The notes below the pieces were generated by a model. The model did no database searches, was not told the origin of the DNA, and worked only from the letters and a program-made list of their open reading frames with translations. From contig CAZUQT010000001.1 of the NCBI GenBank assembly GCA_964622585.1, positions 1 through 59,285 on the forward strand: 59,285 bases of DNA. Direction: 5' to 3'. A program made the translations under genes and the position numbers. The stretch is from an uncultured Elusimicrobiaceae bacterium. GTDB taxonomy: Bacteria; Elusimicrobiota; Elusimicrobia; Elusimicrobiales; UBA9959. This document shows, piece by piece, positions 10,613 to 59,285 of this stretch. Each line of letters starts with the position of its first letter. Position 1 is the stretch's first letter.

Positions 10613-10639
10613 GTCAAGCATCGGAAATAAAGGAAACAT

Positions 10640-12108: not shown

Positions 12109-12424
12109 CTTGGGCGGCCTACCGTGGGGACGGGGTCATCAAAACCGGTGTCTCGCACACCGTGCTCGCACCTGCCGCTCTCGGCCTCGGCGCTACGCAA
12201 GCCTCGGCCTCCGAGGGGCTTTTTCTGACCCCGTCCCCACGGTCTCCGCCCAGAGGCTCATTGGACAGAAGGCGGGCTGACGCATAAATTGAGTGGAGCG
12301 GGTGGCAAGGGTATGGGTTCGGAGCGACCTCTCGGAGGGCGAGGCTTGCGTAAGCGCCGAGCCCGAGAGAGGAGCGCGGCCACGGTGTGGCCGACGCCGT
12401 GAGCGACGGACCCATACCCTTGCC
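12109..12424. repeat. structured intergenic repeat, copy B (composite: full unit plus a second hairpin unit) between convergent gltX and the giant gene
   Basis: 15-bp inverted repeat ACCGTGGGGACGGGG (12121-12135) / CCCCGTCCCCACGGT (12229-12243). 14-bp inverted repeat GGCAAGGGTATGGG (12304-12317) / CCCATACCCTTGCC (12411-12424). The 23-nt family core is at 12313-12335. The subunit GGCGAGGCTTGCGTAAGCGCCGAG occurs in both orientations. Confidence 0.85.
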
Positions 12425-12438
12425 AGGCCCCGCGAACC

Positions 12439-15400
12439 TTAGTGTATCACACCTATCTTCCTCATGATCACCTTGCTGCCTTTGGGGCTGGAGGCCTTCA
12501 CGCGCACTATATAGCGGCCCTTGGAGACCGTGCCGCCCAGGCCGTTCTGGCCGTTCCAGAGCACGTGGTTCGGGCCCAGTTTGCCGCCGTCCGAGCCGCT
12601 GGAGAACCTGAATTCGCGCACCACGTAGCCAAGCAGGTCATAGATCGTCATCGTCACTTCGGCATTGTCATTTAAGGAGTAAGTTATATCGACCCTGCCT
12701 TCAACGCCGCCCTTGCGCAGGTCAACCGGGTTTGGATAGCTTGAAACCTTGGTAAGCAGCTCCTTGCCTATAGTGGTCCCGGCCGGGGTGGAAACGGTGG
12801 ACCACTCGGAATGCTGGCCGGCGAAGTTCCAGCTGCGCACCCTGTAGGTATAGTAAGTGCCCAGCGGCCTGGGCGTTTCCCCGGGCACGGTGGCGTCGCC
12901 GACCGTATAGATATTGTTTATAGCGCCGCCGGTCTTGAAACCTGGCAGGGCCGCTACCGTCCTCCAGACGGGGCTGATGCCCTCGCGCTCCTGTATCTCG
13001 TAGGACATCACATTGGACTCAGGGTCCTCCGAGGCGGCCCACTTGAGGGTATACGCCTGACCCGAAGCCTGGCCTCTGGCCACCTGCGGCTCGGGCGCGC
13101 CGGGACTCGTGGGATTAGTGACGTCGATGCGGTAGATCATTATCGGCACGCCGTTCTCGCTGGGGATATAGCGGCCGTCCGCCATTATACCGCGCACGGA
13201 GACGAGGTAGCCGCGGTCGGAAACCGTCTCTCCCCAGGAGGTATGCGGACCCCGGAAAGAGCCCTGTATGCCGCGCTGGACTATCTTGAACGAAACATTG
13301 TCCAGCTTGTTCACCAGCATGATCTCGTTGCCGACGTAAACGATACCCTCGGCGGCGAACCCGTCGGCGGACTGCACGGTGAACGAGGAGGAGTTAACCT
13401 CTATGCGGGTAAGCAGCTTGGTGAAGTGGCCGGGCGACAGCGCGACATTGGTCACTTTGCCGGCCAGCACGGGCCCCGTCCCGGCGGGCTGCCAGGAATT
13501 TTTAATATTGGTGGGTTCGTTGTAGTTGCCGCCGAGCGAAACCTCGTACGAAGCTACGGGGCCGGAGGCGGGGTTCCACATAGCCGACAGCTCCGTGGTC
13601 TTGGCGGACCAGGCGGAGGGCACGGAACCGAGGTCGGAAACGGCCAGCAGCACCCTGGCGTTCCTGACGTTATCGCCCAGGAAGTAGAGAGGCTTGCCGG
13701 TGCCGTCGTCCATTATGCGGTCCGGCACATAGTCCATATTGCTCTCATAATCCAGGATCCCGTCGCCGTCGATATCGAAGGAGGGCAGGCCGGTATTATT
13801 GAGGCTGATATTAGTGCACCTGCCGGTGCCGTAATAATCGAAGTTATCCGGCTTCCCGTCCCCGTTTATATCGAGCAGCGGCTCGCCGGCCTTGCAGCCG
13901 GCAGGGGGCGAGTTGTAGATCCAGTAGGCGGGATCCGCCAGGGGCATATTATTGGCGCCCAGCAACACGCTGCTGGAGACGCTAAGCTGCGCGTAGACGG
14001 GGTAGCCGTTGGAGGCCAGCATGATAGGCCTGTAGACCGGGGTGAGGGGAATGATGGCCGGCGAGATCAGAACCCGGTTGGACGTCATCGGGTAGCTGTC
14101 GCCCGCATACTGCCCGGCGGCGAGCGGCTGGCCGCTCAGCCCGCGGAAGTCGACGAAGGAGTTAAGCGACAGGCTGGCGAGGTGGCCCAGCGTGTCGGCG
14201 CCGGAAAGGTCGGTGGCCGAGCTGATATCGCAGGTCAGGTGCAGGACGACCGCGCCGCTCGAGACTATCAGGTAAGGCAGATTGCCGTCCATTATGCTGA
14301 CCGTGATGCCGTTCTTGAACGAATTGGTGGCGGAATTCACCACGTAGCCCAGGCGGTAATCCATTATCGGGTTAAAGGCCCCGTCGCCGTCGTCCTTCCA
14401 GAGGGAAACGGTGGACAGGTCTCCGTCGCCGTAGCCGGGCGTGAGGCTGTTGATGGAGCCGGCCTGCGTGAACCTGATCTGGCCTATGGCGAGATAGTCG
14501 CTCAGCGTGGCCAGGGTGTAGGTCATCATCGGCACGTTCTTCGTGTTCTTCTCCACCGAATTGGGCGAAACGTTCATGCCGGAGGCGGAAAGGGTTATAG
14601 CCCGTATAGGCACAAGGCTGGAACTGAACGGGTAAACGTCCAGGTAGGTTCCCTTGTTCAGAATCTTGGTCACGCCCATATAGATACTGGGAGAGATATC
14701 ATGCGGGATATTGACCGTCAGCCAGGACCTGTCGCGCACCATAAGGCCGACCTTGTTCGCCTTCACGGCCTGCTCGCCTATGTCGTACACGGCGAAATAG
14801 GTCTGCGGCAGCGGGCTCAAAGTCTGCACTTGGGAAAGGTTGATCTGGATCTGGGTGTTAAGGACGTTGTCCTGGTCGTAGAGATCGACTTTCCGAACCA
14901 CGGCCTGGGCGGGATGGTTGACCTTGGGCGTAGTAAGGTCGCCGAGCTTCTCGCCTCTGGACATGACGTTCAGGTACGGCTTGCCGGAAGGCGTAGTGCC
15001 GGTGCTGTTATAGGTGGCGAGCTCGGCTTCGCTGATATAGATGCGGCCGGCGGACGGGAAGCCGGCGACGGAATCCAGCACCAGGTGGAACGGAACCGTG
15101 TCGGTGGAGGTGAAGGGCGCGTACAGCGTGGTCTTGGCCTCCGAAACGTTCACGTCGTTCACGTCCAGCAGGTCGTTCTGGTTGGAGTCCTGGTAGATCG
15201 AGACGAACTTGACGTCGGTATTCCTGGCGAACGGCGCGTTGGGATCGTTGGAGGCGCCGGTGCGCTGGACTTTTATGGCGCTCCAGCGCGCGTTACCGGC
15301 CTCGGTGGCGAGATTTAGGCGGACTACCGGGACCCTGACCTGGGCCTGGCCCACGCCGCCCGTCTGCACCAGCTCGGCCGCCATATCGTAGACGCCCATG

Positions 15401-18400
15401 GTCACGAAGGAAGGGATCTCCTGCACCGTTATCGGCATGGTATTTATGGGCCAGGTCGAGAGCGCGAGCGTATTGGGGATGCCGATAGTGAAGTCCGCGG
15501 CGGAATTGATAGTGAGGCCCGCGCCGGAGCCCACCTTCGCGAACTGGGACATATCGTAGCTTATGAAAGCGCAGGACGGCACGGTGGTGACCACGATAGC
15601 GTTCTTCAGCACGATATTGACCGTGCCGGAGGAGTAGGCCTCGTTGCCGTAGCTCATCAGGTTCGGGTACATCCCGGTCGTGGTGCTGGCGATATCCACG
15701 GGATCCAGGATGCAGTTGTCGTTGGAGTCCTGCCAGACCTTTATCAGGTCTATGTCGGAGTCGCTGCTGGTCCCGCGGCGGTCAAGCTTTATCGCCTCGA
15801 TGCGGGCAGAAGTCTTGTCGGTGACCATGCGCATGGCCAGCAGGCCGACGCTCTTGTCGTTCTGCACCACCGTCACCGGCGAGATATCCTCGGGAGTGAG
15901 CGAGATATTGTTGAGCGTGGGCATCAGGACCGCGACCGGGCTCTCCACGGGCTTCAGGAAGCTCGCGTTGTGGCCGGAGTTGTCGGGGCCGAAGATAAAG
16001 TTTGTCTCGAACGGGATCTGCACTCCCAGCACGTCGTTCTGCGGCTGCAGCTGGGCGTGGGAGAACCGTGCGGTCTTGTCGATGTCCATCGAGATGAAGA
16101 CCACGGTGGGCGTGGCGCTTACGACCACGTAGTCCTGCTTGTTCAGGGCGGGGTCCACCACGTAGACGGTGGCCTTGCCCACGGGGTCGTTCACCCCGAA
16201 GCGCCCGGTGCCTATCACCGTGTCCGCGGTGTTCATGCCGGTAGCGGCGTCGCGGTCGAACACCCCGTTGCCGTTATCCTTCCAGACCCTTATGTTGGCC
16301 ACGTCGGAGTCGTAGCCGTTGATGCCGGCCGGCTGCCTGCGGACCAGCTTGAAGCCCTTCCAGCGCACGCCGTAGCCGGAGGTCGTCAGCGACATCTTCA
16401 GGAAAGGATAGTTATCGGTACCCTGCGAGACCATGATACCCAGCGCGGTTCCGGAGCTGTGGGTGACGATCGGCGTGCTGAAGGCGCCCCGGGTAACCAT
16501 CCACAGCGAGGTTCCGACAATACCGTCGTATTTTATTATCTCGTTGTCCGCCGTGAGGTAGCCGGACGTGGGCAGGCCCGCGGTAGAGACCACCGCCCAG
16601 GCGGCGTCGCTGGCCCCCGTGGTGTTCACATCCGCCGCCAGGCGTATGGCGGGCGCCGACGCCCCCCCGTTAGGAGCGAAGATCTGCTCGGTCAGCACCG
16701 TAATGGTGCTGGGCGCCGAGATGATCTCGCGGACCTTGGAGGTGAAGGTCAGGTTGGAAGCCGCCTGCGAGAAGTAGTTCGGCAGGGAGATGGAGTTCTT
16801 GGCCGGGTCGTCCGCGCCCGGGCTGTTCTGAGCGAAGGATTCCGGCTTGAGATAGGCGCCGATGAAGCGCGAGTTGCCGAAAGCGTCGTTGGGCAGGGCG
16901 GAGTCCTTCATGTCGTAGGTCAGGAAATAGCGCCGCGAGAGCGCGCGGGCGGTGGCCTCGTCCGGCGTGATCACGCGCTGCGTGGAGAGGTCCACCCTGG
17001 CCGCCAGCGGGCCGAAGATAGTGTTGCCGAAAGTCCCGGAACCGACCAGCGTGTCGTTGGCGCCCAGGAAGCCGTTATTGTCCTTGTCGTACCAGACCTT
17101 TACGGCCGCTACGTCGTTGGCGGCGGTGGCGTCCTTGATGACCGTGCCGGTGGCGTAAACCAGCAGCCAGCGCCAGACCGCGTCGGCCACGTCGGTTTCT
17201 ACAGTAAAGCTCAATATCGGCTGGTTGACGGCTTTCTGCTGGAGCGTGTCCCCGGTAATGGTGTCGGTAGCCCTCACCATGACCGAGTCGGCGTATTCAG
17301 CCACGCCGCCTATCAGCGAGAGAGTCTTGCCCGGGCTGGAAACGCCTATATTGGCGGGGCTCATGAACTTGGGCGCGTCGATGAGGAAGTAGTCGGTAGA
17401 GCGCGCAGCCATGCCGAGATAGGAGAAATTGGAGACATTGGCCAGCGGGTCTATGTCGTAGGTGACGAAGTAGTCCTTGGGCTCGGTGAAGATCACCTGC
17501 CCGTCCATGTTGCCTCCCTCCCCTATCAGCGGCAGGATGGCCTGGCCGGAGATCACGGTGCCGCTGGACCAGAGCACTTTGGCGGTCCCTTCCGCGGCGC
17601 GGGTGATCCCGCCGAAAGTGTTGGTCAGGACGTCCACGCTGCTATAATAGACGACTTCCTTTAAAGCCGGGTCCGCCTGGCCGTCGTTGATCACCAGCCT
17701 GCCCGGCGCGCGCGGGAAGGGGCTGTCGGACGGGAAGAACTTCTGGATATCCACTACGCGGATGACCGTATCGGTGGAGACCAGCGGGGTCTTGAGGGTG
17801 TCGTACGGGAACTTCCTGTCCTGCGAACCGATCAGAATGACCTCGGTATCTTTCACCGTGGTAGTGGTCTCCAGCAGGCCGTCCTTGTTGGAATCGTGCC
17901 AGACGCTTATCTTCTTGACGTCGGTGACCTTGTTCCACGCGGGCGTATTCCCGTTCTCGGCGCCGGTCACCCAGCGGTCCAGCTTGAGGCCCTTCCAGAC
18001 CGCGGAACCGATGGTGTCCTTGATCTGCATCGTGAGGCGGACCACGGCCTTGTTCTTGTCGTTCTGGGTCACGAAAGAGGGCTTGCTGAAGTCGTTGGGC
18101 GCCGACTTGTTCACGTCCGCCAGGTAGACCATGTCCGCGGTGGCGTACAGCGGAACCGTGGAGGAAGCGACGGGCGAGAAGGCGCCCACCACGCCATCCA
18201 TGAGGCTTACGGCCGAGTTCTCGAGGCGCGCGCCGTGGGTTATCATGGTGGCCGGGTCCGGGGGCATCGGCGAAGGGATGGCGTCCGGCTTGAACTCGTA
18301 GACCACGTAATACGTGCGGGTAGCTATGGAGACCAGGCCGTCCACGCCGGGGTTATAGAGCGGCAGGACGAAGGTCCCGGGGTCGGCCGGGTTGAAGACG

Positions 18401-21400
18401 GGCGGGTTGGCGGGGTCCGTAACTTCCTTGTCTATAGCCTTGTCGAAAGTGCGCACGGTGGACGTGGAGGTGTCGGTATCCGTTTCCAGGAACAGCCGCA
18501 CGCTCTTCAGGTCCGAACCGGAGCCGGTGCCGGTCTTGATTATCCTGAAGGACCTTATGGTTCCGACGAAGTTATCCGTCCAGGCCTTTATCGCCAGGAA
18601 CCCGGCGCGGTCCACGCCCTGCTCGACGTAGGCGTTCTTGCCGGCGTCGACCCCGGCCTGCCACCAGGCGCCTATATCCGAACCCTCTATGCGTATGGTA
18701 GCGGGCTGGTTGCGCACCGGGGAGGTCGCGGTGATTATCGGGAAATTATTGTACGCCACGCCGACCAGCGTGGAGTTAAGCACCACGAAGTCCGGGTTGT
18801 CCATCACCAACGCGAAGCTGCGCGGGGTGGCCGCTACCGTGGACATGCGCACCGCGAAGAAGAAATTGCGCGCCGTGTTGGAAACAATTGAGGCCGTGCC
18901 GACCTTGACGCTGAGGTCCTCGAATTTCCAGCCCCGCAGGCTTTCGTCGTAGGTTCCGCTGGACATGAAGATATCTACGGGCTTGGCCCCCAATACAGCT
19001 TCGCCGTCGAAGACGCCCTGCTGGCCGGCCGCCGTATTGTCGGCGTACATCCCGATCTCGATGATATCCGAATTAGCCAGCGTGCCGGAGCTCTTGACCT
19101 GCACCGACTGCATGTAGGACGAAGGCGCGCCCGCGGGCATGGCCTGCATCGTGAGGCGCAGCATGGGCACGGGGGAGGGCACGTCCGCGATGACGCCGTC
19201 GCCCTGGTAGATCGCGTACTTGCTTATCCCTATCGAGGTCTTGGAGACCGGCAGGGGGTCTTCGGGCGCGAAATCCCTCGGAGTTATCACCAGGCCGGAC
19301 AGGACCACGTCCGCGTTCGAACCTACGGGCATACCGCGGCTCGAGTCGCCGGTATAGCCGTAGAGCAGGGGATTGTTGTAATCGGTCGCGCTCACTTTCA
19401 GCGTCTCCACCAGGGTATCCTGCACCAGCAGCTGGTGCTCGCCGGCGTCCGCCTGGATAAAGGTGTAGTCGGTGGTATTCGGGGCGGGATAAGCCCACAG
19501 GTCGGCAGAGCCCTTGGTATTGGTCCGCATATTGACCTTGCCCAGGTAATATTTCCCGTTCACGCTGTCGCCGGAGGCTATATTCCCGTACTGGTCGCGG
19601 GCGCGCAGCTTCAGGTAGCCGGCCGAGCGCACGCGCAGCGGGTTGGTGAGAACGTAAGGATGGTGCAGCGTCAGGTAAGCCGCGTTGCCGGGAGTTATGA
19701 ACTGCTCCTGGGTGACCGCCGGCAGGACCTGCGCGTTGGAGAGAATGGTCGAGTTGACGGTGATCGCCGCCGAGCCTACGATAGTGTCCCAGACGTAAAT
19801 ACTGGCGTAGGAGCTGCCCGCAGGCATGTCAAGGTCGTACGGGCTGGTCTTAAGCAGGTGCCAGCTGGGATTGGTGGACAGCGTGGGCGTAGACGCGTCT
19901 ATGCCGCCAAACGTAGTAGTGCGCGCCGCCGAGAACCTGAACCTGACCACCGAAGAGGTGGTGGTATTGTTCTCATAGCGGTCCTTAAGCACCACGCCAA
20001 CCGGGGTCGGGGTGGTTATGCCCAGCAGGTAATCCGAATACTGCACGGTGGTTCCGGCCACCAGGCGGCGGGGCAGGCTGGCGAAAGCGACATGGTCCGG
20101 CAGGTTCGGAGTAACGGTATACGAAGAAATTGCCGGCAGCCAGCCCTTCGACAGCACCGTGGTAATGGTCATCTGGTGCGTAGGCGCGGAGACCAGGGTG
20201 TCTATCAGGTAGAAACTGGTGGTAGCCTGGCCCAGCGCCATCGTGGCGGTGCCGGGCTTCGGGACGAAGCCGGAGGCGTTCGGAGCCGCGAACTTCACGT
20301 CGCCGAGCGAGCTGGAATTCATCGTGAACGCGACGCCGGCGTTGAGAGCGTCCTCCTGGCCGCCTGACACGGGGGTGGGGTTGCCATAATGGTCCTCTAT
20401 GGACATCAGGAAGAACTGCGAGGTGACGCCCGCGGTCAGGACCTGCCCGGCGCTGGAGCTGACATTGACGCGGTAGGTCAGGTCGGGGGTGATCGTGACC
20501 GACTGCGTGGAGGCGGCCCAGCCCGTCATCTCGGGAACCTCGAGCTTCAGGATGGGCTTTATCGGCGCCGCCGAGGAGGGGTAGACGCTGGAGGCCGTAG
20601 TGTCAAGATAATAGAAAGTGGCAGAGTAAACATTGAGCGGTATATCCAGGGTAGTGATCGTGGACGAGAACACCGGCGGGAAAGCGCCGGAGACCTTGCT
20701 CGAAACGGAGAAGGAGAAAGAGTCGTTGATAAGCGAAGGCTGGCGCGTAAAGGTCGAAAGCACCACCGTCACCGGCGCGGTGGCCACCGACGGATTGTCG
20801 AACATGTCGCGCAGCTCGGCTTTGAAGATCTGCAGGTCGAGGAACCTGTCGGTCAGCTTCCCGGCCGTCATGGAGCGTGGCGCATTGCCGAAAGCCACCT
20901 GGGAAATGGCCTGCGGGGTAAGGCGCAGCTGGTGGATGGCCGGCTGCATCGCGCCGGAGCGCGCCTCCAGCTGCCAGTAGCCGGGCCTGCCGTCCTCGAA
21001 GTCGTTGGTCGCCGGGTCCACCCCTGAATAGGAGGAGGTCCTGTCTTTGTAGCGGAAGGAAGCCCTGGTCTTGTTTATCGGGATGATCACCGCGGAAACG
21101 AACTCATTGTCGCCGAAGTCGCGGAAACCATAGTCACCAACGTTGCCGAAAGTGGCCATGGTCCGGCCCAGCCCGGTATGCACCGCCACCTGGTCGGCCG
21201 GGAGGCCCAGGTAAACCCCGGTCTCGCCCTGCTTCGTCACATTGTCGAAATCGTCGCGGCGCTCCACCGTGAACAGCGCGCCGGTCCCGGCCATCTCGTT
21301 TATGCCGACATTGGCCTCGGTCTTTATTTGCGCGTCGCCGGCGTTGGGAACCAGGACCAGCTTGGAGGGATCGCCGCCGGTGGTGGTGAGCACGCCGCTC

Positions 21401-48400: not shown

Positions 48401-51400
48401 TCGTTTATTATCCTTATCTGCCCGGTGGTCGCCGCCGCGAGCGTTCCGTTTATCACGGCCAGGTCCGGTTTGTAATAAGGGGAGCCGGCCGGCGGATTTA
48501 AAATAACCGAAACGGGCGACGGGACTATCTTCTGTATCTCGATATAAGAAGATTGCGCCGGCGGCGAAGTCACCCCGGCTTGCCCGGGGAAAGCGTTCTT
48601 ATTACCCACCGCGTCGGTGGTCCTGACAAATATCCGGTACTTCTGATTATCGGTAAGGACCGGGATGCTGGAGGCTGAAACGGTCCAGTTCACGGGGGTA
48701 GCGGTATCGGTGGAAGCGTCCACATAAGCGGCCTCCGGCGGCGGGTTTATCCCGTCGCCCAGGTTGAAAGTCCCGGCCGTAAGAGGGTCCCACCATTGCC
48801 CGCTGGTAATACTGTAGAAAGCCGCCTGCACTTTCTGTATCCGCGTATTGGTGTCGTTAGCAGTGCCGGAAACGGAGGTGAGCAGATAGATGCTGTATGT
48901 GTTTGGAACCTGCACCAGGGCGGTCGGCACCGTTTTATCGGCCCTGATCGTGATCTGGTTCCTGCCGGCCTGAAAAACCGACTCTTCATTGGACTTTAAG
49001 GCGTTTACGGCGTCAAGCGCATTATCGAAGCTCTTTATCTTCACCCTGTAAGGCCTGCCGTCCTGCATCGCGGCGTAAAGCGTGGAAGTGTTGTAGGAAT
49101 AAGTGCTGTCGGCCACCAGGTTCATGTCCTTCCAGGTCGTGACAGTGTTGCAAACACCGGAGAAATCCGTGCCGTTCCAGCAGTTAAGCGTAACCTCGTC
49201 CCTCACCTCGGTCTGCATCTTGTTTATTGAGCCGCCGGAGGCCAGGCCCGCCAGCGGCAGGTCCAGGGCGGTTCCCTTTATGAAGTCCAGCGTGTACCCG
49301 GCATTGGAACTGTACCAGGCGCTGTCGGACGGCGTTGTTATGGTGGAGGTGGGAGGCTGCACTTCGTATTTGAAAGACTTCTTCAAAGTCGTGGACGAGC
49401 CTATGTTCCTGTAGCTTGTATCGGGCAGGTCCACATTATCCTGCGACCAGGCGTACACCTTGAATTCCTCGGCGGTAGGCACCCCGGTCCAGAAACCGCC
49501 CATGGCCTGGTGCACCCAGTCGGCCGCCGGGGACTGGCAGGAGTCGTTCCTGCCCGCCTGCCAGCCGTTGACGGTGCCGTTCCACCATAAAAGGTCGGAC
49601 TGCCTTTGTATGCCTATGCAGGTCATGTTCAGACCCGCCTGCCTGGTGGTATCCGGCATGTCCTTCGCCGTTCCCGAGATATTGGTAAGGGCCGTATCGG
49701 AATAAGTCGCTCCCTGCGTTGGGTTTAAAACCACGGTGTCGGGCGCCGTAGCGTCGTATTTAAAGACCACCGTGGAATAAACCGTGGAATAATTACCCGC
49801 CTTGTCCACGTCCCTGCCGACATAAGTGTATTGTTCTCCGGAGAGCCAGGCTATGTTGGAGGACTGCCACGTCTCGTACGGGACCGTGGTGGTGGTCCCG
49901 GCCACGTTCCAGATGCTTCCGGTCTGGTCTATCCAGGAGGAAGAGACCTTGTTCCACTTGGCAAGCGGCGGGTGCTCCAGCGTGTATTCCACCGAATTCA
50001 CTTTCGAGAAACCGTCATTGGCGGTACCGAGCAGCCTGGTCAAGGAATTAAGACCGTAATTCCCGCCCGCCGCCGGGAAATTTATCCGCACCGTGGGGAC
50101 CTCGCTGTCGTACAGGAAATAGCCGCTCGTGGCCGGGGACAGCGCCGTGCCGGTGGAATTGCCGGCGGCGTCGTCGGCGTAAACCTTGACGTTATACCAG
50201 AACCCGTTCTGCCAGTTGGTCGATACGCCGACGCTGAAAGAGGAAGGGTCCGAAGAGGGGGCGTACTGCGCGGAAGCGAAAACAGGGGACCCGGCGCAGT
50301 TGGTTCCCCACTTATCGGCGCCGCCCTGTTCGTAAACGCAGTAATAAACGCGCCTCGTGCCTATGACATTATCCACCACATTGTCCGCCAGGGAGCCCTG
50401 TAAAAAGTTAAACGCGCTCCTCCACACATTGGACGGATCGCCCTGCGAAACGGGCGCGTTCGGCATCAGCGCCTCCGGCACGCTTACCGTGATAGTGGGC
50501 GCGGTGACATCGTAGTAAAAATCCCTGGAGAGACCCAGCGTCTCGGGGTTGAATTTATCCGAGGCGCGCGGTTGTATCCTGTATTTCCTGCCGTCTATCC
50601 AGGCCGGGAGCTTGGGATGGGAGATATCGTCCGGCGCCGCTTTCACTATAAAACCCAGGGATTTATCCACGCATTCGTCGCCGCAGGTAAAATTAGTGAG
50701 CGCGCCGGGAGGTGAAGGCAGTTTCACCAGATAATACCAGGTATCCGAGGCCAGGAAACCGGTGGCGTCATAGCCGGTCCAGTAAGTATCGTCGTTGCCC
50801 GTGCCCTCCCCTATGGTTCCGTTGGGGCCGGCGTTTATCAGCCGCATCTGCGCGCTTTTCAGGCCCACGCCGGCGTCCGCGGCCGTACCCTGTATGGCCG
50901 CAAGGGAGTTGACGCTTGAATTCGGCGCCGGGACGGTGAAATTCAGGCCCGGCCCCGATTTATCTATCTTGAAAGTCACGGCGCTTGAAGGGTTGCCGAA
51001 GCCCCTGTCGTTCGTCTTGCCCCTGCTTACAAGGGTATAACTGCCGCCGTCCGCCTGGGCCGCCGCGTTGTTAGGCCAGGCCATGTTCGTCCACGCCGTT
51101 ATGCCGCTTGTGACCTGCAGCCACTGTTCCCCGGAAACAGCCGGGTCCACATAGTTTACGCTGTCCCACTGCCAGCCGTCCGCGCGGGTGATCCTCATCT
51201 GCGGCGCTATATTGCTCTGCCCGGCCGCCGGCGCAAAACCGGAGATGCCCGTGATCTGGGCTATACCGCTGGAATACATTACAGGCTCCACCGGGTAAGA
51301 CAAGTCCGATGTGGGCACGGTTATGGTGGCGGCCCCGGTTTTAAAACCGTCGCGGCCGTCCCAGTTGGAAACGACCATGTTCATAGGCCCGGCCGCTACG

Positions 51401-53136: not shown

Positions 53137-53153
53137 TCAGGGAACGCCGCCTG

Positions 53154-53939
53154 CTATTCCAGGCTTTTCAAGACATTATCCGCCCACCTGGAGAGTTTTT
53201 CGTCCTTACCGGACTTAAGGGCGGCCAAAGCCGCCGCCGCTTTCGGGGTCCCTATCTTGCCCAGGCTCTCTACCGAGGCTTTTTTAACAAATTCGTCATT
53301 GTCCTCGACCGCGGCCTTAAGCAGGGCTTCAATGCCTTCGTCAGCCTTCAGTCTGCCCAGGACCTCTGCCGCCTTCCAGCGGGTGTTCCTGTCCGGATCA
53401 GCCAGGAGCGAGGAGAGGGACGGCACTGCCCGCTTGTCATCCAGGTCGCCCAGGCCCTCCATCAGCCCCAGCCTGGACTCTTTATCCGCCCCGGCCAGGG
53501 CGTCCGAAAGGGTTTGAAAAGCCGAATTATCCTTTGACCCGCCTATCAGCCTGGCGGCTTTCTCTTTTATGAGCGGGTCCTCATCCGCAAGGGATTCCCT
53601 CAGCAGCGAAATTTTTTCCGGGTTTTGAGGCCCCGAGAGCGACTCCAGAGCTTTCCTCCGCTTTTTGTGGTCGGCGTCTTTCAGGTCTTTCCTGACCGCG
53701 TTCAGGTCCTGCGCGGGCGCGGCGGCGGAACTTATGGCCAGGGCGGGCGGGGTTTTTTTATTTACCGCGCTGTTCTTCAGCCCCGCCTTCACTCCGGTTT
53801 TAGCGGCCGGCACCTTAGCCTCTTCGGCGGAAAAAACGGACGCCGGGCAGAGCAGGATGAAATACGCGGAAGAAAGCAGGAGTGCCATCGCGGCTATCGC
53901 TCCGCCCGATCCTGCCGCCGCAGCGTTTTTCTGTTTCAT
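53154..53939 (-). CDS. small secreted HEAT / PBS-lyase-type repeat protein directly upstream of the giant gene
   Basis: I prefer the ATG at 53939, which has an AGGGAAG SD-like element ~5 nt upstream, over the TTG at 54080 used by the ORF track. Signal-like N-terminus GGAIAAMALLLSSAYFILLCPASVFS/AEE. HEAT-like repeats include DPLIKEKAARLIGGS, DKESRLGLMEGLGDLDDKRAVPSLSSLLADPDRNTRWKAAEVLGRL and DEFVKKASVESLGKIGTPKAAAALAAL. Confidence 0.8.
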   Translation of the reverse strand: MKQKNAAAAGSGGAIAAMALLLSSAYFILLCPASVFSAEEAKVPAAKTGVKAGLKNSAVNKKTPPALAISSAAAPAQDLNAVRKDLKDADHKKRRKALESLSGPQNPEKISLLRESLADEDPLIKEKAARLIGGSKDNSAFQTLSDALAGADKESRLGLMEGLGDLDDKRAVPSLSSLLADPDRNTRWKAAEVLGRLKADEGIEALLKAAVEDNDEFVKKASVESLGKIGTPKAAAALAALKSGKDEKLSRWADNVLKSLE

Positions 53940-54111
53940 AATCTTCCCTGCGCACGGCAGGCTTATAATCAGACTTATGTACGGCCCGAACTGCTGCAAA
54001 ACAAAAAACGACCGCGCCACGCGGCAATATTTCTTTTTAGTCCGTTCTGACCGCAAAAGGCCGTGAAACGGTACGCGCAAAAGAATTGCCGCAAAGCGTA
54101 GATATTAAAAC

Positions 54112-54140
54112 ATTATAATATAAAAACAGCGTTTCGAGAA
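54112..54140 (-). promoter_or_regulatory. weak candidate promoter for the HEAT + giant gene unit in an AT-rich patch
   Basis: The minus strand reads TTCTCG (54140-54135), 17 nt, TATAAT (54117-54112), inside the only strongly AT-rich stretch (54100-54160) upstream of the HEAT gene. The -35 is poor. Confidence 0.3.
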
Positions 54141-54302
54141 TATTATATATATATGAACGGGCCGGAGCCCGCCTGGAAGATCTCTCTACACCCTTGGCCG
54201 CGCTGAACATTTTTCCTCCCCGACTTTCCTATTGAGGTTGAGCCTCGATAAATTCCTGCCGAGGCTTCGCCTCGCCAAAAAGGCCCTGCTTCCCGGACAG
54301 CC

Positions 54303-54374
54303 AAAAAAAGACCGCTTCTGCTCTCTTCGCCTTAACCCGGTGCTGGGCTAATACCCCGAAGACAGCAGAAACGG
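54303..54374 (-). terminator. intrinsic-terminator-like hairpin with a U7 tract (minus strand)
   Basis: The minus strand reads CCGTTTCTGCTGTCTTCG (54374-54357), a 27-nt loop, CGAAGAGAGCAGAAGCGG (54329-54312), then TCTTTTTTTGG (T7 = 54309-54303). The 18-position stem has 16 Watson-Crick pairs, one G-U and one mismatch. Confidence 0.6.
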
Positions 54375-54508
54375 CCTAAATCCGTTCCAAACACGCCGGC
54401 ACTGACCGGACGGTCTTTCATCTTCGGCAGCCTGACCCCCGCGTATTTAGCGGGTCTTAGCTTTGCGCCGCCGGCTTTAGCCGGCTTTGCTATTATCGGA
54501 CACTACCC

Positions 54509-54652
54509 AAATAAAACGCCTCGCCCATCTGGGACACACACCGCGCCTACACTACCGCACCGCGTCTGTCTGCGACCGCAACCGCCCGCAACTGCACCGC
54601 ACCTGCTCACTACCAAGCCAGATGGGCGAGGCACTGCACTACACCGCACTGC
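54509..54652 (-). ncRNA. candidate ~145-nt small RNA or leader element (promoter-to-U-tract unit), family unknown
   Basis: It starts ~7 nt downstream of a consensus promoter (next feature). A 15-bp perfect inverted repeat, GCCTCGCCCATCTGG (54632-54618) / CCAGATGGGCGAGGC (54532-54518), encloses 85 G/U-rich nt. GTTTTATTT (54517-54509) follows at once. No plausible ORF. Confidence 0.45.
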
Positions 54653-54658
54653 AAATAT

Positions 54659-54686
54659 ATTATAGCAGATAGAGAGCTGTTGTCAA
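54659..54686 (-). promoter_or_regulatory. near-consensus sigma70-type promoter (minus strand) with extended -10
   Basis: The minus strand reads TTGACA (54686-54681), 16 nt, TGcTATAAT (54667-54659). A second TTGACA lies at 54708-54703. The GTCAAG/CTTGAC half-sites in 54682-54709 form short inverted repeats. Confidence 0.6.
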
Positions 54687-54750
54687 GGCCCAATTCTTGA
54701 CTTGTCAAGACCATGGCCGCGCCGCATCCAGGGCCATGTTCTTCGGACGG

Positions 54751-55866
54751 CTAGCGGCGCGCCCCGGCGTCAAAAAGGCCGGCGGCAGCGGCATAGGCCG
54801 CGTCTCCGAGCAGGGTCGTCTCCCTGGAATCGTCCCAGACCCGGCCTGGCGCGCCGGCTTTAAGGTCAGGCTCCGCGCCCTTCCCCTCCATATCCAGTCC
54901 TGAAGGCGGGAACATCCTCGCTACGGACAGTTCCAGGCCGCGCCCGTCGCCGAGGCTGAAGGCGCGCACCAGCGAGACGCTGCCGGCCATGGGCTCCCCT
55001 ACCAGCGCGGCACCGGAGAGTTCTTTAAGGGAGCGGGCGAAAACTTCAGCGGCCTTGGAGGTTCCTGAATTGACGATCGCGACCTGTCTCATCCCGGCGA
55101 ACCGCCCCTTTTCCGCCGCGCCGTAAAGGGCCGAATAGCCTTTATGGCGGGACCTGACCTCGAAAACCGGGCCGGCTTTGGGCGCGAAAGCCCTAAGGAC
55201 CTCCGCCGCCTCCGCGGGCACGCCGCCCGGATTGTCCCGGAGATCGAAAATAACGTTCACGGCCCCCACCCGGTACAGCGCGTCCAGGCCGGCCAGCACG
55301 GCCTTCGAGGAACCCTCGAAAAAAAGGCCCAGGCGCAGAAAAGCCGTGCGGGAATCCCGGTCGTAAAAAGCGAAAGAGGGAGGGAAGAAGAAATCGTTCC
55401 TGGCCACATCGGCCTCGAAAGGACCGGCGGCGCCCCGGTGCTCCGCTTTCAGACGGAAGAAAGCGCCGCCCTCCACGCGCCGGCGGACCGCGTCCGGAGA
55501 GGCCGCCTCGCCGTCCAGCGCCAGCACCCTGTCCCCGTCCCTGAAGCCGGCCGCGGCCCCTGGCGAGTCGCTGAAAACTTTCAGGATAAAGATCCCGCCG
55601 CGGCGCTCTCCGAAGAGGAGGCCGGATGAAAAATTCCTTTCCGAGGGCCTGGCCTTAACCGGCCGCCTGGCTTTCAGCACCAGCGCGTGCCGGTCCAGCT
55701 CGGCGAGCCCGGCGGCGCCTTTCTCCTTCAGCAGGCCGGAGATCTTCTGCGGGGAATATTCCTCGTAGCTGTGGCGGGAAAATATTTTAAGGACTTCCTG
55801 CTCGGGAAGCTTCCCGGAGCAGGCCGCGGCGAAAAGCGGGAAAATCAAAAGCAGCTTTTTTTTCAT
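54751..55866 (-). CDS. S41-family (C-terminal processing peptidase-like) PDZ lipoprotein with non-canonical dyad positions
   Basis: Lipoprotein-type signal MKKKLLLIFPLFAAAC/SG. PDZ-like segment GIFILKVFSDSPGAAAGFRDGDRVLALDGE. S41 core motifs VIFDLRDNPGGV and VAIVNSGTSKAAEVFARSLK...LVGEPMAGSVS...PPSGLDMEGKGAEPD. SD GGAG lies upstream of the ATG at 55866. Confidence 0.8.
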   Translation of the reverse strand: MKKKLLLIFPLFAAACSGKLPEQEVLKIFSRHSYEEYSPQKISGLLKEKGAAGLAELDRHALVLKARRPVKARPSERNFSSGLLFGERRGGIFILKVFSDSPGAAAGFRDGDRVLALDGEAASPDAVRRRVEGGAFFRLKAEHRGAAGPFEADVARNDFFFPPSFAFYDRDSRTAFLRLGLFFEGSSKAVLAGLDALYRVGAVNVIFDLRDNPGGVPAEAAEVLRAFAPKAGPVFEVRSRHKGYSALYGAAEKGRFAGMRQVAIVNSGTSKAAEVFARSLKELSGAALVGEPMAGSVSLVRAFSLGDGRGLELSVARMFPPSGLDMEGKGAEPDLKAGAPGRVWDDSRETTLLGDAAYAAAAGLFDAGARR

Positions 55867-55906
55867 TAATTACTCCGAAGCGTGAAGTCAGAACTGCGCC
55901 GGGCGC

Positions 55907-57400
55907 TTACTGTCCGGCCATGACGGCGCCGCTCGTAGTGGCGTCGCCTCCGCTGTACATCGCGGCGCCGCAGGGGTCATTGGGGAGGAAAGGCCCATAC
56001 AGCGGGCAATTCTGGCTGGCCGTATTAGGCGGCAGGCAGCAGCAGGGCGCCTGGGCCGTGCAGCCGCACTCGCCGCCGAAGCCTTCGGTCTCTACAATAT
56101 CCCCTATACCCACCGCGGTTATATCCGGCTGGTCCTCCGGATTGACGAAGGATTCCGGGCCGTCGGGAGGCCTGGGCCCGGCGCGGCCGTCTCCGGGAGG
56201 TTTAGGCCCGGCGCGGTCGTCTCCGGGAGAATCGGTGCCCGGAAGACCCTTGAATAAATTATTGATCATGCTGCCTGAAAACTCGCCGGCTTCTTTTTTC
56301 GCCTGGTAGTCCTTATCGGCGGCAAGCGCCTCTCTGCTTCCTTCCTTGTCTATCTTCGGCTTGGCCACGTCGGATACCGACAGGCCCTTGGCGCCCCCGG
56401 CGCTGAGGTCCTGGTCGCGCAGGAAGCCGGGGATGGCGTCCGGATTCACTTTATCCAGCTTGCGCATTTCTTCGTCGTACTTGATAGCGGTGGTGGCCTC
56501 GGCGCTGCCGTCGAAAGCCCGGGCCGTCCAGCCCCTGGCCGCGTCTTTGGAGGCGAGGCGCGCGCCGTATAAAGAGGCCTTGAAAGAGCCTTTCATAGCG
56601 TCCAACACCGAGCCCCGCCCGGCCTGCTTGGGCGACATCCTGGCTGTTTCCCGCTGGTCCGAAGCCTTGCCTATCGCGACGCCGTTGCCCTGGAAAGCCG
56701 GGGCTCCGGCGGGAAGGCCGGAAACACTGCCTTTCGAGCTCTTGGCTCCCATGGGGCCGGCCGAGAGGAAGGCCCTGGCCTGCAGTTTTTCAGCCATTCC
56801 CCCCTGCCCCGCTGGGGCCGCCCCGGGAGCTCCCCCGGAAGAAGAATCCCCCTCCTGGCTGCCGGAGCTGCCGCCGGAGCCGGAGCTTTGAGTCGCGCGC
56901 TTCCCGGCCGCGTCCGCCACCAGTTCTTCCTTAGTGCGGACCAGGGAAGGATTGACCCTGTCGCCGGCGGCCCCGCCCGAGGGCCCGCCCGCGGCCTGTT
57001 GCCCGGCGCCTTCCTGGTCCTGCCGGAAATATTCCCTGTTCCCCGCCTGGCCCGCCTTTCCGTCGTAAATAGTGCTGTTGGCCGAGAGCTGCTCATAGTC
57101 CTGGCCGCTGCCCAGCTTATGCGCGGCCTTGCTCATGCCGGTGACCGCGTAGAAGCCGCCGCCGGACAGAAGCAGGAGGATAAGGCCCAGCGAAAGCAGC
57201 CAGAATTTTTTCTCTTTATTGCTTTTTTTCTCTTCGGGCGTTTCTTCTCTTTCGGGTTCTTCTTCCACGTACTCCTGCTCAGGGACTTGCCCCTCAGCCG
57301 GCGCCTGTCCGTCTGCGAACTGGTCCTTTATTTCCCGTTCGGCGGGCTCATTCTCCGCTCTTTCCTGTCCCGCCGCCTCTTTTTCTTCATCTGAAGGCAT
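55907..57400 (-). CDS. hypothetical bitopic membrane protein: acidic N-terminus, one TM, Gly/Ser/Ala-rich ectodomain, Cys-rich C-terminus
   Basis: The ATG at 57400 has a GGAGG SD 5 nt upstream. The N-terminal ~65 aa are Glu-rich, followed by the TM segment FWLLSLGLILLLLSGGGFYAVTG. A low-complexity region follows (SSGSGGSSGSQEGDSSSGGAPGAAPAGQGG). The C-terminus is GGECGCTAQAPCCCLPPNTASQNCPLYGPFLPNDPCGAAMY (7 Cys in ~40 aa). I recognise no family. Confidence 0.7.
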   Translation of the reverse strand: MPSDEEKEAAGQERAENEPAEREIKDQFADGQAPAEGQVPEQEYVEEEPEREETPEEKKSNKEKKFWLLSLGLILLLLSGGGFYAVTGMSKAAHKLGSGQDYEQLSANSTIYDGKAGQAGNREYFRQDQEGAGQQAAGGPSGGAAGDRVNPSLVRTKEELVADAAGKRATQSSGSGGSSGSQEGDSSSGGAPGAAPAGQGGMAEKLQARAFLSAGPMGAKSSKGSVSGLPAGAPAFQGNGVAIGKASDQRETARMSPKQAGRGSVLDAMKGSFKASLYGARLASKDAARGWTARAFDGSAEATTAIKYDEEMRKLDKVNPDAIPGFLRDQDLSAGGAKGLSVSDVAKPKIDKEGSREALAADKDYQAKKEAGEFSGSMINNLFKGLPGTDSPGDDRAGPKPPGDGRAGPRPPDGPESFVNPEDQPDITAVGIGDIVETEGFGGECGCTAQAPCCCLPPNTASQNCPLYGPFLPNDPCGAAMYSGGDATTSGAVMAGQ

Positions 57401-57488
57401 AGAACCTCCGACCGCGCGTACGACAAATAGAACTTAAGGTCTGGGGACTGGTAACTCACCATCTCCAAGGCCTTTATTTCACCTGAAT

Positions 57489-57517
57489 GTTATAGCAGAG
57501 GAAACGCCGAAATTCAA
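57489..57517 (-). promoter_or_regulatory. candidate sigma70-type promoter for the Cys-rich protein / S41 peptidase unit
   Basis: The minus strand reads TTGAAT (57517-57512), 17 nt, TGcTATAAC (57497-57489), about 85 nt upstream of the ATG at 57400. It shares the CTGCTATAA motif with the promoter at 54659-54686. Confidence 0.45.
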
Positions 57518-57556
57518 GGGGTGGAGCGCCGGCCCTTAAAAGCCCGGCGCCGCGGA

Positions 57557-59188
57557 CTAGGCCCCGGGAACCCCTGTTTTCAGCGGCTTCGGGGGTTTGC
57601 CGTATTCGGCGAAGACAGCGACTATCTCGTCGTAATCCAGCTCCTCGCGGGCGAGGAGCTCCTTGACGAAGCGCTCCACTATAGGCCAGTTCTCCCTGAG
57701 GAGCGCGTCCACCAGGGCGTACTGCTCCTTGATTATGTCCTGCGACTCGCGGTTAAGGGTATTATTTATATCGCTGGAGCGCTCGTGCTGGGGAATAACG
57801 GTAAAATCCCCCAGGAAACCGGTCTTGCCCATGCCCAGCTTCCACACCATATTGTGCGCCAGCCTGGTGATATTGGCGAAGTCGGAGCTGACTCCCTCCG
57901 TGGTCACCCCGTACTTTATTTTCTCGGCGGCGTAGCCGCCCAGCGAGGTGCGGATATGGGCCAGCAGGGTGTCGCTGTCAGCGGCGTAAATTTCCTCGGC
58001 GGGCACGGAATGCACCACGCCCATGGCGCCGCCGCGGTTCAGGATGGAGACCTTGAACACGTCGTTGGTGGGATGGGTCAGGTAAAGGGCCAGCAGGTGG
58101 CCGGCCTCGTGGAAGGCGGTCATCTCTTTCTCCCGCGCGGTCATATTCAGGCGGTGGGCCACGCCCAGGTCCACGCGCTCGATGGCCTCGCTGAAATCCT
58201 TGTAGGTGATCATGTCGCGCGAGCCCCGGGCGGCTATCAGCGCGGCTTCCTTTATTATGTTCTCTATCTCCGCCGGCGTCTTGTGCACGGCTTTGCGGGC
58301 CAGGCGCCCCACCTCAAGGGCCGGATCATATTTCACCTTGCCGAGGTAGTAGCCGAAGAGCGCCTCGCGCTCCTCCAGGTTAGGGCGCCCGACGAAGATC
58401 TTGCGGTCGAAGCGGCCCGGCCTCAGCAGCGCGTCGTCGAGGATCTCCTCGAGCGCGTTGGTGGCCGCGAACACCACCACGTTGGCGCCCGACTCGAGGC
58501 CGTCCATCTCTACGAGCAGCTGGTTCTGCGTGCTGTTGGTCTCGGAGCCGCCGCCGAAGGCGTCGTAGAGCACGCGCTTGCGCCCGATGACCTCTATCTC
58601 GTCGATGAAAATTATGCAGGAACCGTGGGCCTGCGCGTATTCCTTGGCCTGCTTGAAAAGCTTGCGCACGCGGCTCGCGCCCACGCCGACGAAGACCTCG
58701 ACGAATTCGGACCCCGAGATGGAGATGAACGGCACCCCGGCCTCCGTCGCCACGGCCTTGGCCAGCAGGGTCTTGCCGCAGCCCGGGGGCCCGACGAGCA
58801 GGACGCCTTTCAGGATCTTCCCGCCGATCGCCTTTACGCGGGTGCGGTCCTTGATGAGCTGCACCACCTCCCACGCCTCGCGCTTGGCCTCCGTCAGCCC
58901 TATCACGTCGGAGAACTTGATATTGACCGCCGCGGCGTCCACCTTGCTCTTTTTCAGAGCGCTCAGGCCGCCCGACTGCATCAGGTACAGGAACCCGACG
59001 AAAATGACCGTATTCAGCACCATCCAGGGCATGCTGGCCACGTTCATGCTGATGATATAGCGGCGGGTGTTCTCCTCGACGCCGGCGAGGTACCAGATGG
59101 GAAAGAGCACCGCCCCGACGACGATGGCCGCTATCGAAAGCCCCACCCAGTGCCGCTGAAAGAACAGTTTAATTTTAAACCAAAGCAT
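57557..59188 (-). CDS. ftsH: FtsH-family ATP-dependent zinc metalloprotease (short form, minimal extracytoplasmic loop)
   Basis: Walker [16 protein letters not shown], Walker [35 protein letters not shown], zinc motif HEAGHLL. Two N-terminal TM segments are separated by only ~17 aa; 543 aa. SD AAGGAAA lies upstream of the ATG at 59188. Confidence 0.9.
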
Positions 59189-59220: not shown

Positions 59221-59285
59221 CGCCATGGGCATGGGTTCGGAGCGACCTCTCGGAGGCCGACGCTTGCATAAGCGCGGAGGCCGAG
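59221..59285. repeat. structured intergenic repeat, copy C (truncated by the window end)
   Basis: CATGGGCATGGGTTCGGAGCGACCTCTCGGAGGCCGACGCTTGCATAAGCGCGGAGGCCGAG aligns with copy B 12304-12367. The 23-nt core ATGGGTTCGGAGCGACCTCTCGG is identical at 59231-59253. Confidence 0.8.

Follow-up and report, generated by a model that had tools for sequence, protein, structure and literature searches.

We analysed a 59,285-nucleotide (nt) stretch of DNA (the window), which is one entire contig of a metagenome-assembled genome from the phylum Elusimicrobia. Its minus strand carries the gene of a giant surface protein of immunoglobulin (Ig)-like repeats, the genes of four further envelope proteins, and a GEMM-I riboswitch that lies among them. 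We consider it likely that the window covers the downstream part of a surface-structure locus conserved in Elusimicrobia and holds at least three transcription units, among which the operon for the giant and a secreted HEAT-repeat protein is gated by the riboswitch. The anatomy of this locus and its gene order, as well as the family of the riboswitch and the conserved position of its aptamer, can be read directly from the loci that we compared.

Gene order around the giant

All credible genes between positions 12439 and 59188 lie on the minus strand, and the listing of open reading frames (ORFs) gives five that are co-directional. In the order of transcription they encode an FtsH-type protease, a bitopic Cys-rich protein, an S41/PDZ lipoprotein (here the S41-like protein), a secreted HEAT protein and the Ig-repeat giant. 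An earlier description of this DNA, made from its letters and translations only (the sequence-only reading), had seen here five co-directional envelope genes around a giant protein. The ORF listing and our domain searches of the window proteins against Pfam and NCBIfam bear this out. All five products are targeted to the envelope as judged by direct reading of their sequences: the FtsH-type and Cys-rich proteins have transmembrane (TM) helices, the S41-like protein has a lipobox-like sequence, and the HEAT protein and the giant have Sec-type signal peptides.

Related loci, numbered with an L below, came from a scan of GTDB with the head of the giant (4 loci), a metagenome scan with an alignment of the Cys-rich protein (17 more) and the neighbourhoods of 10 of the 73 clusters of Cys-rich homologues; 10 kb of flank was fetched and examined per neighbourhood. 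The window proteins were compared with these loci by tblastn and profile searches, and the RNA by Rfam and a custom covariance model. Of 16 independent long Elusimicrobia contigs, 12 show the order Cys-rich–S41-like–HEAT–giant, at protein identities as low as 28–38%, and these are all the contigs that extend far enough. In three of the other four, inserted genes take up the whole 10-kb flank, and L013 alone looks like a true exception. Homologous giants of 2,224–16,733 amino acids (aa) occupy the equivalent position in other loci and share, where aligned, 28–82% identity with aa 601–2000 of the window giant, and among the loci examined we saw no giant of the window family without these neighbours. 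The expectation of the sequence-only reading that the neighbours would accompany related giants is therefore largely upheld.

The S41-like gene comes after the Cys-rich gene in every locus with enough sequence, the gap being 40 nt in the window and the two genes overlapping or nearly abutting in L032 and L008. HEAT orthologues with 35–83% identity precede the giant in five loci (L004, L006, L007, L026, and L028), and a HEAT protein was detected by profile in eight more (L011, L015, L017, L019, L024, and L029–L031). The HEAT-to-giant gap is 75 nt in the window with no predicted terminator between, and in L030–L032 the genes overlap or lie 7–30 nt apart. Across the conserved loci, identity falls to 35–39% for the Cys-rich protein, 36–50% for the S41-like protein and 28% for the giant head. 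At least six independent insertions have occurred at the junctions, bringing in unrelated genes (CreD, EamA, radical SAM, methyltransferase, and an MFS/spermine-synthase fusion), and the gene order was never broken.

A GEMM-I aptamer at a conserved position

A whole-window Rfam scan placed a 79-nt RNA upstream of the HEAT gene in RF01051 (GEMM-I, the cyclic di-GMP (c-di-GMP)-I family) with 53.9 bits against a gathering score of 35 (E 8.8e-8), the alignment spanning model positions 1–87. Compensatory double changes among 15 aptamers affect 6 of the 18 predicted pairs of the two-helix fold. The GGC-variant family RF03167 was considered for the window aptamer and rejected (47.9 bits against a threshold of 59, with A at position 47 in all copies); it rises above this threshold only in the L007/L020 clade, at 63.1 and 61.5 bits. 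The sequence-only reading had taken the element for a small regulatory RNA; a regulatory element does stand beside the giant operon, but it is a cis-acting riboswitch and not a small RNA.

The pocket nucleotides of the window aptamer are A20, A47, and C92, which departs from the canonical G20/A47/C92 set at position 20. Position 20 is A in 15 of 15 aptamers, where AAUA is followed by GCAAA in every copy, and its spacing to position 47, 27 nt, agrees with the numbering of Vc2. All copies hence have the feature that defines GEMM-Ib, an A at the equivalent of Vc2 G20 (A14 of Gs1761). An A at this position marks the GEMM-Ib RNAs that sense cyclic GMP-AMP (cGAMP); A20 RNAs can be bispecific, and the G20A mutant of Vc2 binds both c-di-GMP and cGAMP with nanomolar Kd (PMC6140456). 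Because position 20 is A, we infer that the ligand is c-di-GMP, 3',3'-cGAMP or both, a choice that sequence alone cannot settle. The window contains no GGDEF or CD-NTase gene.

The aptamer recurs at the corresponding position in about 20 loci (the window, L004, L006, L007, L009, L010, L018–L022, and L025–L033). It lies between the S41-like and HEAT genes in the window, L004/9, L006, L007/18/22, L026, L028, L030, L031, and L032, and immediately before the giant in L019, L033, and the second copy of L027; the latter locus has two copies, one before HEAT (12611–12688) and one before the giant (13879–13956). In L029 and L020/21 it heads a glycosyltransferase/radical-SAM/methyltransferase block that ends in HEAT. 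The custom covariance model found no weaker aptamers in L008, L011, L013, L015, L017, and L024. An aptamer of the 2dG-II purine riboswitch class (85.3 bits; gathering score 60) is also found in L027, at 1488–1558, upstream of the genes for a 228-aa protein and an Rce1-like protease. A literature search joining Elusimicrobia with c-di-GMP riboswitches found no paper.

The block inserted between the S41-like and HEAT genes in L029 (13293–20045) and L020 (2266–9026) encodes GT2/radical-SAM fusions, B12-binding radical-SAM enzymes and an LPG_synthase_TM/methyltransferase fusion, and in L029 and L020/21 it falls under the riboswitch; L017 (8603–12595) has a GT9 enzyme there instead. The predicted activities of the glycosyltransferase/radical-SAM block suggest that glycan or lipid modification is linked to the locus.

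Promoters, leader and terminator

The sequence-only reading had placed candidate promoters before the Cys-rich/S41-like pair, the RNA element and the HEAT gene, and we recovered a candidate at each of these places. The one before the pair (TTGAAT-17-TATAAC) is weak, lies under the criteria of the promoter scanner and was read from the sequence. That before the RNA element, promoter P1 (TTGACA-16-TG-TATAAT), has an extended −10 and agrees with the consensus at 12 of 12 positions, and its TTGACA-N-TA(T/C)AAT pattern is kept in 10 of 14 leaders. The third is a conserved element with TATAAT, described below.

In 13 of 14 riboswitch leaders the −35 hexamer is preceded, at a distance of 22–26 nt, by a palindrome, TTGAC-NN-GTCAA. 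Its central dinucleotide varies, and it has a single occurrence in the window. This pattern suggests an operator at which a transcription factor binds as a dimer; an obvious candidate is the GerE-type response regulator conserved in related loci. The transcript would then begin with a structured domain (−73.6 kcal/mol, z −5.1) that has a 15-bp closing stem and a loop rich in GCGGUG repeats and is followed by GUUUUAUUU, which includes a U tract. The closing stem covaries, being CAUCUGG/CCAGAUG in the window and CUUUUGG/CCAAAAG in L010 and L019. The domain might serve for pausing, attenuation or protein binding. In the L007/L020 clade a shorter hairpin with a U tract occupies the same position.

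The expression platform downstream of the aptamer consists of a helper hairpin (GGAACGG/CCGUUUC), a 67-nt terminator hairpin (54376–54310; −42 kcal/mol) and a T7 tract (54309–54303). Terminators with T tracts are predicted in 12 of 15 leaders at −18 to −47 kcal/mol. The terminator is a self-contained hairpin that has no strand in common with the aptamer. Between it and the first gene lies an AT-rich element, CGAAAC-N12/13-TATATTATAAT-GTTTAATATCT, which contains TATAAT. It recurs in 12 of 14 leaders, has no second copy in the window, and might act as a second promoter or as an RNA element. In L019 and before the second aptamer copy of L027 this element is directly ahead of the giant ATG. A small ORF after the terminator (Shine–Dalgarno GGAGG, ATG at about 54210; the window, L004, L006, and L010) was not taken as a gene, as L026 has too little space for it.

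Because a promoter, a riboswitch and a terminator lie between them and the Cys-rich/S41-like pair, the HEAT and giant genes are predicted to form a riboswitch-gated operon of their own, separate from that pair. The five genes had been proposed to be a single module. Their synteny is indeed conserved; the unity of the module is not, as it is split by these signals, FtsH is dispensable and the locus extends upstream to pilin-like and two-component genes.

Direction of the switch

An OFF switch, in which ligand leads to termination, is in our view the somewhat more probable direction in the window, because the 3' tail of the aptamer is complementary to the 5' strand of the terminator: the free aptamer would favour an antiterminator and read-through, and the ligand-bound aptamer would favour the terminator. 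The giant would accordingly be produced when the cyclic dinucleotide is low. The tail, CCGAAGA(CAGG), holds C92 and the P1 strand of the aptamer, and the motif to which CCGAAGA is complementary, CUGUCUUCGG in the terminator 5' strand, is kept across clades. In the window clade the helper hairpin would cover the rest of the terminator 5' strand in the antiterminated state. The clearest case is L007, where 11 contiguous bases are complementary, the duplex has a z of −3.5 with none of 200 shuffles as good, and the entire leader adopts the antiterminator as its minimum-energy fold. This shuffle control is significant for L007 only, z being −0.7 to −2.2 elsewhere, and since these scores are modest we built the case for the antiterminator on the conserved complementary motif rather than on folding energy.

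Two features of the window clade speak against the OFF direction. Even in the absence of ligand its lowest-energy fold is the terminator (−90.5 kcal/mol, as against −72.1 kcal/mol for the forced antiterminator), and its antiterminator duplex has z values of −1.2 to −1.7. We therefore regard the OFF direction as firm, from these folds and motifs, for the L007 clade only. The same terminator energetics, together with a 13-bp outer terminator stem that falls outside the proposed antiterminator, would fit an ON switch, or an operon driven mainly from a second promoter, such that the dinucleotide raises or hardly affects giant production. The conserved TATAAT element downstream of the terminator points the same way, and c-di-GMP usually promotes adhesion. 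We hold this alternative to be possible, though the less probable of the two, as the terminator shares no strand with the aptamer, the complementarity of the aptamer 3' tail to the terminator 5' strand is conserved with the helper hairpin covering CCGUUUC, and the L007 leader folds at minimum energy into the antiterminator.

The envelope proteins

The Cys-rich protein has no Pfam or NCBIfam match. It consists of an acidic cytoplasmic N-terminus, a KK..KEKK stretch followed by one TM helix, a mostly disordered periplasmic part and the C-terminal motif ECGC..APCCCLP..NCP.YGPFLP.DPCG, which is conserved in two alignments. A protein search returned 73 clusters of homologues, every named one of them from Elusimicrobia; the family is uncharacterised and Elusimicrobia-only. 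An AlphaFold2 (AF2) model from a 55-sequence alignment is mostly disordered, with a mean predicted local distance difference test (pLDDT) score of 51.6 and a predicted template-modelling (pTM) score of 0.24, too poor for a fold search; at this pLDDT of 51.6 it contains a TM helix (58–97) and helices at 265–296 and 352–381. Within the low-complexity periplasmic part, a tandem 30-nt repeat (56164–56223, minus strand) encodes DDRAGPKPPG/DGRAGPRPPD.

The S41-like protein has a lipobox-like sequence, MKKKLLLIFPLFAAAC, and matches PF03572 (Peptidase_S41) with 86.2 bits. Its other matches are below their cut-offs: PDZ_6 and PDZ_2 reach 22 bits against 27, and TIGR00225 reaches 94 bits against 218.6. 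We set the positions of the catalytic dyad by alignment to the CtpA structure 9jr1 and its S→A/K→A mutant 9ku3 in the PDB. Where the reference has GSAS (the last Ser being the nucleophile) followed by ASE, and FGK (the Lys being catalytic) followed by G, the window protein has NSGTSKAAE and GEPMAGSVS, so that the nucleophile is replaced by K and the catalytic Lys by S. The nucleophile position is M, K or R in 25 of 26 locus sequences (about 20 of them distinct), with Ser in L031 only, and the catalytic Lys position varies among S, K, D, and R across the 26. Because the Ser/Lys dyad is missing in nearly all orthologues, the family is very probably non-catalytic, a probable pseudo-protease, and the protein probably serves in binding or as a scaffold rather than as a protease.

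The FtsH-type protein matches Pfam AAA (137 bits) and Peptidase_M41 (125 bits), and its translation has the Walker A/B, pore-loop and HEAGH (HEXXH) motifs. It is a short form, with two N-terminal TM helices and a loop of about 15 aa replacing the periplasmic domain; there is no Pfam match to FtsH_ext, and the match to TIGR01241 (469.7 bits against a cut-off of 600) begins at model position 103. In 11 loci its gene immediately precedes the Cys-rich gene; insertions separate the two in L008, L025, and L028, and six lineages (L007/18, L013, L021, and L030–L032) lack FtsH. FtsH is a frequent but dispensable neighbour of the locus.

The HEAT protein matches HEAT_2 with 115 bits and has a Sec-type signal peptide (MKQKN…VFS/AEE). 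The giant also has a Sec-type signal peptide, and its start is probably the ATG at 53079 (M20 of the ORF), since conservation with L004 begins there. An extension of about 50 aa (52930–53079, minus strand), in which SSLGSLFA is directly duplicated, precedes the hydrophobic core of the signal peptide; its start is conserved in L004 (MLEAEIKK...) and it resembles an extended signal-peptide region. Iterative hidden Markov model (HMM) searches on the giant resolved a head (aa 1–601) and 65 tandem modules of about 123 aa (aa 602–9026), followed by 10 modules of about 115 aa (aa 9150–10413), a divergent stretch, 6 spaced modules (aa 11696–12975) and a beta-sandwich. Pfam finds Ig-like matches to Big_13 and Big_3_2. 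The terminal ~90 aa (12442–12711) score under the cut-offs for FlgD_ig (23.7 bits against 27) and TIGR04183 (21.2 bits against 23), two folds that resemble each other as beta-sandwiches. The C-terminal beta-sandwich of about 80 aa opens with a YPNP motif and has weak matches to PorU/PorZ tails as well; 19 of its 24 homologues carry PF13860. The head family is small, comparable in size to the Cys-rich family: a word-indexed search gave one homologue, for which no record of its genomic context exists, the family has 36 representative clusters among 1.84 billion, with the head nearly always N-terminal, and a scan of one genome per GTDB species gave 4 loci, all in Elusimicrobia. ORFs of up to 883 aa on the plus strand, antisense to the giant (12811–52536), are most likely artefacts of its GC-rich repetitive coding sequence.

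A model of the locus and its alternatives

On the model we favour, the first unit would supply the short-form FtsH membrane protease and the second the Cys-rich/S41-like pair, which is invariant over the loci examined. Transcription of the third would start at the sigma-70 promoter by the palindromic operator and pass through the structured leader and the aptamer to the terminator, with read-through giving HEAT and the giant. The Cys-rich, S41-like, and HEAT proteins may act non-catalytically in the periplasm on the giant, by tethering, chaperoning or quality control; alternatively, they may act on the neighbouring Flp-type pilus.

Several observations weigh against this model. L013 has the Cys-rich/S41-like pair with no riboswitch, HEAT or visible giant, and the first genes after the riboswitch in L029 and L020/21 are those of the GT2/radical-SAM/methyltransferase block. 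The structured leader with its U tract upstream of the aptamer is unexplained by it, and transcription might bypass the riboswitch by starting from the TATAAT-containing element 3' of the terminator, if this is a second promoter. Finally, the proposed action of the accessory proteins on the giant is drawn from adjacency alone. Downstream of its Cys-rich/S41-like pair, the only one without riboswitch and HEAT, and on the strand opposite to that pair, L013 (16710–21222, minus strand) has a PorV-like outer-membrane gene (PF19572, 41 bits) beside a gene for a large fn3-repeat protein of at least 1,148 aa.

Common descent by itself might also account for the gene order. FtsH, Cys-rich, S41-like, and HEAT would then be envelope housekeeping genes of one order, next to which the giant remains without functional dependence. 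All loci are in one phylum, mostly labelled Elusimicrobiales; FtsH, at 65–98% identity across loci, looks like a housekeeping protein and is missing from several; L013 keeps its pair without the rest; and unrelated genes are inserted at several junctions. However, the order outlasts both the divergence of the three conserved proteins and the six or more insertions described above, and the Cys-rich (73 clusters) and giant-head (36 representatives) families are small and confined to Elusimicrobia. We judge common descent alone to be rather unlikely.

A different division of the locus is suggested by what lies upstream of FtsH/Cys-rich in L026–L033 (e.g., L029 6106–8102). Three genes there, with products of roughly 84, 385, and 194 aa, are predicted to encode a Flp-type pilin, a TadG-like protein and a TadE-like protein, respectively. 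The pilin has the motif PGQTTVEY (G/QTTVEY), which appears in the 84-aa protein of L029 as PGQTTVEYLLLL; the TadE-like protein has GQAMTE and scores 19.8 bits for TadE against a cut-off of 22.9, and the TadG-like protein has a sub-threshold match of 12 bits to Tad. Upstream of this trio are genes for a GerE-type response regulator, a hybrid histidine kinase, a dCache histidine kinase, a DsbA-like protein and an OmpR-type regulator. These pilin-like and two-component genes are out of view in the window because the contig ends about 100 nt upstream of the FtsH gene, within a repeat element. The Cys-rich, S41-like, HEAT, and FtsH proteins might thus form a pilus-related module with the pilins, the giant being a separately regulated neighbour. 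The trio directly upstream, the two-component system before it and the promoter/riboswitch boundary after S41-like would suit such a module. We think it unlikely, since in most loci HEAT lies with the giant downstream of the riboswitch, the pilins were assigned from sub-threshold scores, and the fetched flanks contain no Tad assembly ATPase, secretin or prepilin peptidase.

The sequence-only reading had seen two quality-control or processing-type proteases, FtsH and S41, which together with a scaffold and a regulatory RNA candidate would form a dedicated biogenesis, processing or regulation system for the giant. The Peptidase_M41 and Peptidase_S41 matches and the conserved adjacency to the giant speak for it. 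A system in which both proteases and the scaffold process the giant and a trans-acting small RNA tunes it is nevertheless highly improbable: M, K or R stands in for the S41 catalytic Ser in 25 of 26 locus sequences, with no conservation of the Lys, FtsH is a facultative neighbour (absent in L007, L013, L021, and L030–L032), and the RNA acts in cis, as a riboswitch that has a terminator of its own.

In its most far-reaching form, our own model would make the Cys-rich, dyad-less S41-like, and HEAT proteins, perhaps with the Flp/Tad-like pilins, an undescribed Elusimicrobia-specific apparatus that tethers, chaperones or displays megadalton Ig-repeat proteins under the control of a 3',3'-cGAMP GEMM-Ib riboswitch. 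This we put forward as a long shot only. If true, it would be a cGAMP-riboswitch regulon outside the Geobacter lineage.

Relation to known systems

The proposed regulatory logic is, by analogy, of a known kind, a cyclic-dinucleotide riboswitch upstream of surface or attachment genes. The window RNA resembles the GEMM-I/GEMM-Ib riboswitches (RF01051; Vc2 of Vibrio cholerae, and Gs1761/Gm0970 of Geobacter) in its fold, which scores above the gathering threshold, in A47 and C92, and in its transcription-terminator platform upstream of surface/attachment genes; it shares A at position 20 with GEMM-Ib and the bispecific Vc2 G20A mutant (PMC6140456). It differs in its Elusimicrobia host, in the 40-kb gene that it would gate, and in the conserved structured leader and operator ahead of it.

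In the Lap system of Pseudomonas, the giant adhesin LapA is combined with the periplasmic protease LapG and the c-di-GMP receptor LapD. The window locus likewise joins a giant repeat adhesin and a cyclic-dinucleotide input to periplasmic or inner-membrane accessory proteins encoded nearby. However, neither its five proteins nor the flanks examined include type I secretion system genes, a LapG-type cysteine protease or a GGDEF/EAL receptor; the dinucleotide would be read by an RNA at transcription, and the S41-like protein is probably inactive. Prc–NlpI and CtpA–LbcA each pair an S41 protease with a helical-repeat lipoprotein adaptor. Here too the gene of an S41/PDZ protein adjoins that of a helical-repeat periplasmic protein (HEAT and not TPR), and HEAT follows S41-like directly in L011, L015, L017, L019, L024, and L033, but the Ser/Lys dyad is missing, and HEAT is not a lipoprotein and in most loci would be transcribed with the giant.

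No secretion genes are found within the window, as the sequence-only reading had noted for the classical systems. The C-terminal beta-sandwich with YPNP is reminiscent of type IX secretion system (T9SS) cargo (TIGR04183) and FlgD_ig-tailed surface proteins, and most tail homologues carry PF13860, but the giant scores under both cut-offs and there are no T9SS core genes in the window. The only such gene seen in the related loci is the PorV-like gene of L013.

Metagenomic proteins of more than 10,000 aa with Ig-like repeats have been described among Omnitrophota giant genes (bioRxiv 10.1101/2023.11.21.568195) and in a survey of huge proteins (PMC11573180), the latter naming Elusimicrobia as a phylum with a high propensity for them. 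The passages of these papers that we consulted report neither regulation nor a conserved accessory set for Elusimicrobia, both of which are defined here. Our literature search found no description of this locus. What is new is a predicted riboswitch-gated giant surface-protein operon inside a phylum-specific locus that has three uncharacterised envelope proteins.

Features and flanks of the window

Table 1. Features of the window in the order of minus-strand transcription, with coordinates and basis
Feature	Position	Strand	Details and basis
FtsH-type membrane AAA+/M41 zinc protease	57557–59188	−	543 aa; Pfam
Candidate promoter of the Cys-rich/S41-like pair	57489–57517	−	TTGAAT-17-TATAAC; read from sequence
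Bitopic Cys-rich protein	55907–57400	−	497 aa; no Pfam/NCBIfam family
S41/PDZ-like lipoprotein, probable pseudo-protease	54751–55866	−	371 aa; PF03572; dyad absent
Palindromic operator-like site	54697–54708		TTGAC-NN-GTCAA; conservation in leaders
Sigma-70 promoter P1, extended −10	54659–54686	−	TTGACA-16-TG-TATAAT; 12/12 consensus positions
Structured leader domain	54509–54632	−	Fold energy, covarying closing stem
GEMM-I (c-di-GMP-I) aptamer	54423–54501	−	RF01051
Expression platform: helper hairpin, intrinsic terminator, T7 tract	54303–54388	−	Folding
Conserved AT-rich element	54100–54152	−	12/14 leaders
Secreted HEAT-repeat protein	53154–53939	−	ORF 53154–54080, likely start ATG 53939, 261 aa
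Giant Ig-repeat surface protein	12439–53079	−	ORF open from 53136 (13,565 aa); ~1.4 MDa
Giant N-terminus: extension, signal-peptide h-region, head domain (aa ~90–600)	51334–53136	−
65 tandem Ig-like modules, ~123 aa each (aa 602–9026)	26059–51333	−	Iterative hmmsearch
Giant C-terminal 4,539 aa	12442–26058	−	Iterative hmmsearch, Pfam, NCBIfam

Bases 1–12094 carry housekeeping genes on the plus strand: a ligA fragment, a thioredoxin/TPR protein, purH-like, a HEAT protein, glnS, NAD kinase, recN, and gltX. The product of the HEAT gene among them (4100–6010), a HEAT/Armadillo-repeat protein of 636 aa, has a signal peptide and is a different protein from the HEAT protein of the operon. Its gene sits in a stretch with a GC content of 0.48, against 0.59–0.63 around it, and may have been acquired horizontally.

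An intergenic repeat of about 200–300 nt, resembling repetitive extragenic palindromes or miniature inverted-repeat transposable elements (REP/MITE) and with internal palindromes, is present in three copies. One follows the plus-strand HEAT gene (6040–6290), an inverted one lies between gltX and the stop of the giant (12130–12440), and a partial one is at the contig end upstream of FtsH (59222–59285). The contig break probably falls inside this repeat.

Implications

Elusimicrobia are, to our knowledge, almost wholly uncultivated, and we know of no regulation or partners for their huge proteins. In the locus described here we predict that a gene of 40 kb is switched on or off by an RNA of 79 nt, and this prediction is open to an in vitro assay that is feasible without culture. 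The loss of the catalytic dyad from the S41-like family illustrates that an S41 domain match alone is risky as evidence of a protease. Three uncharacterised periplasmic proteins travel with the giant gene across the phylum, and the riboswitch hints at the physiological signal behind surface display, which would be a cyclic dinucleotide, possibly cGAMP given A20.

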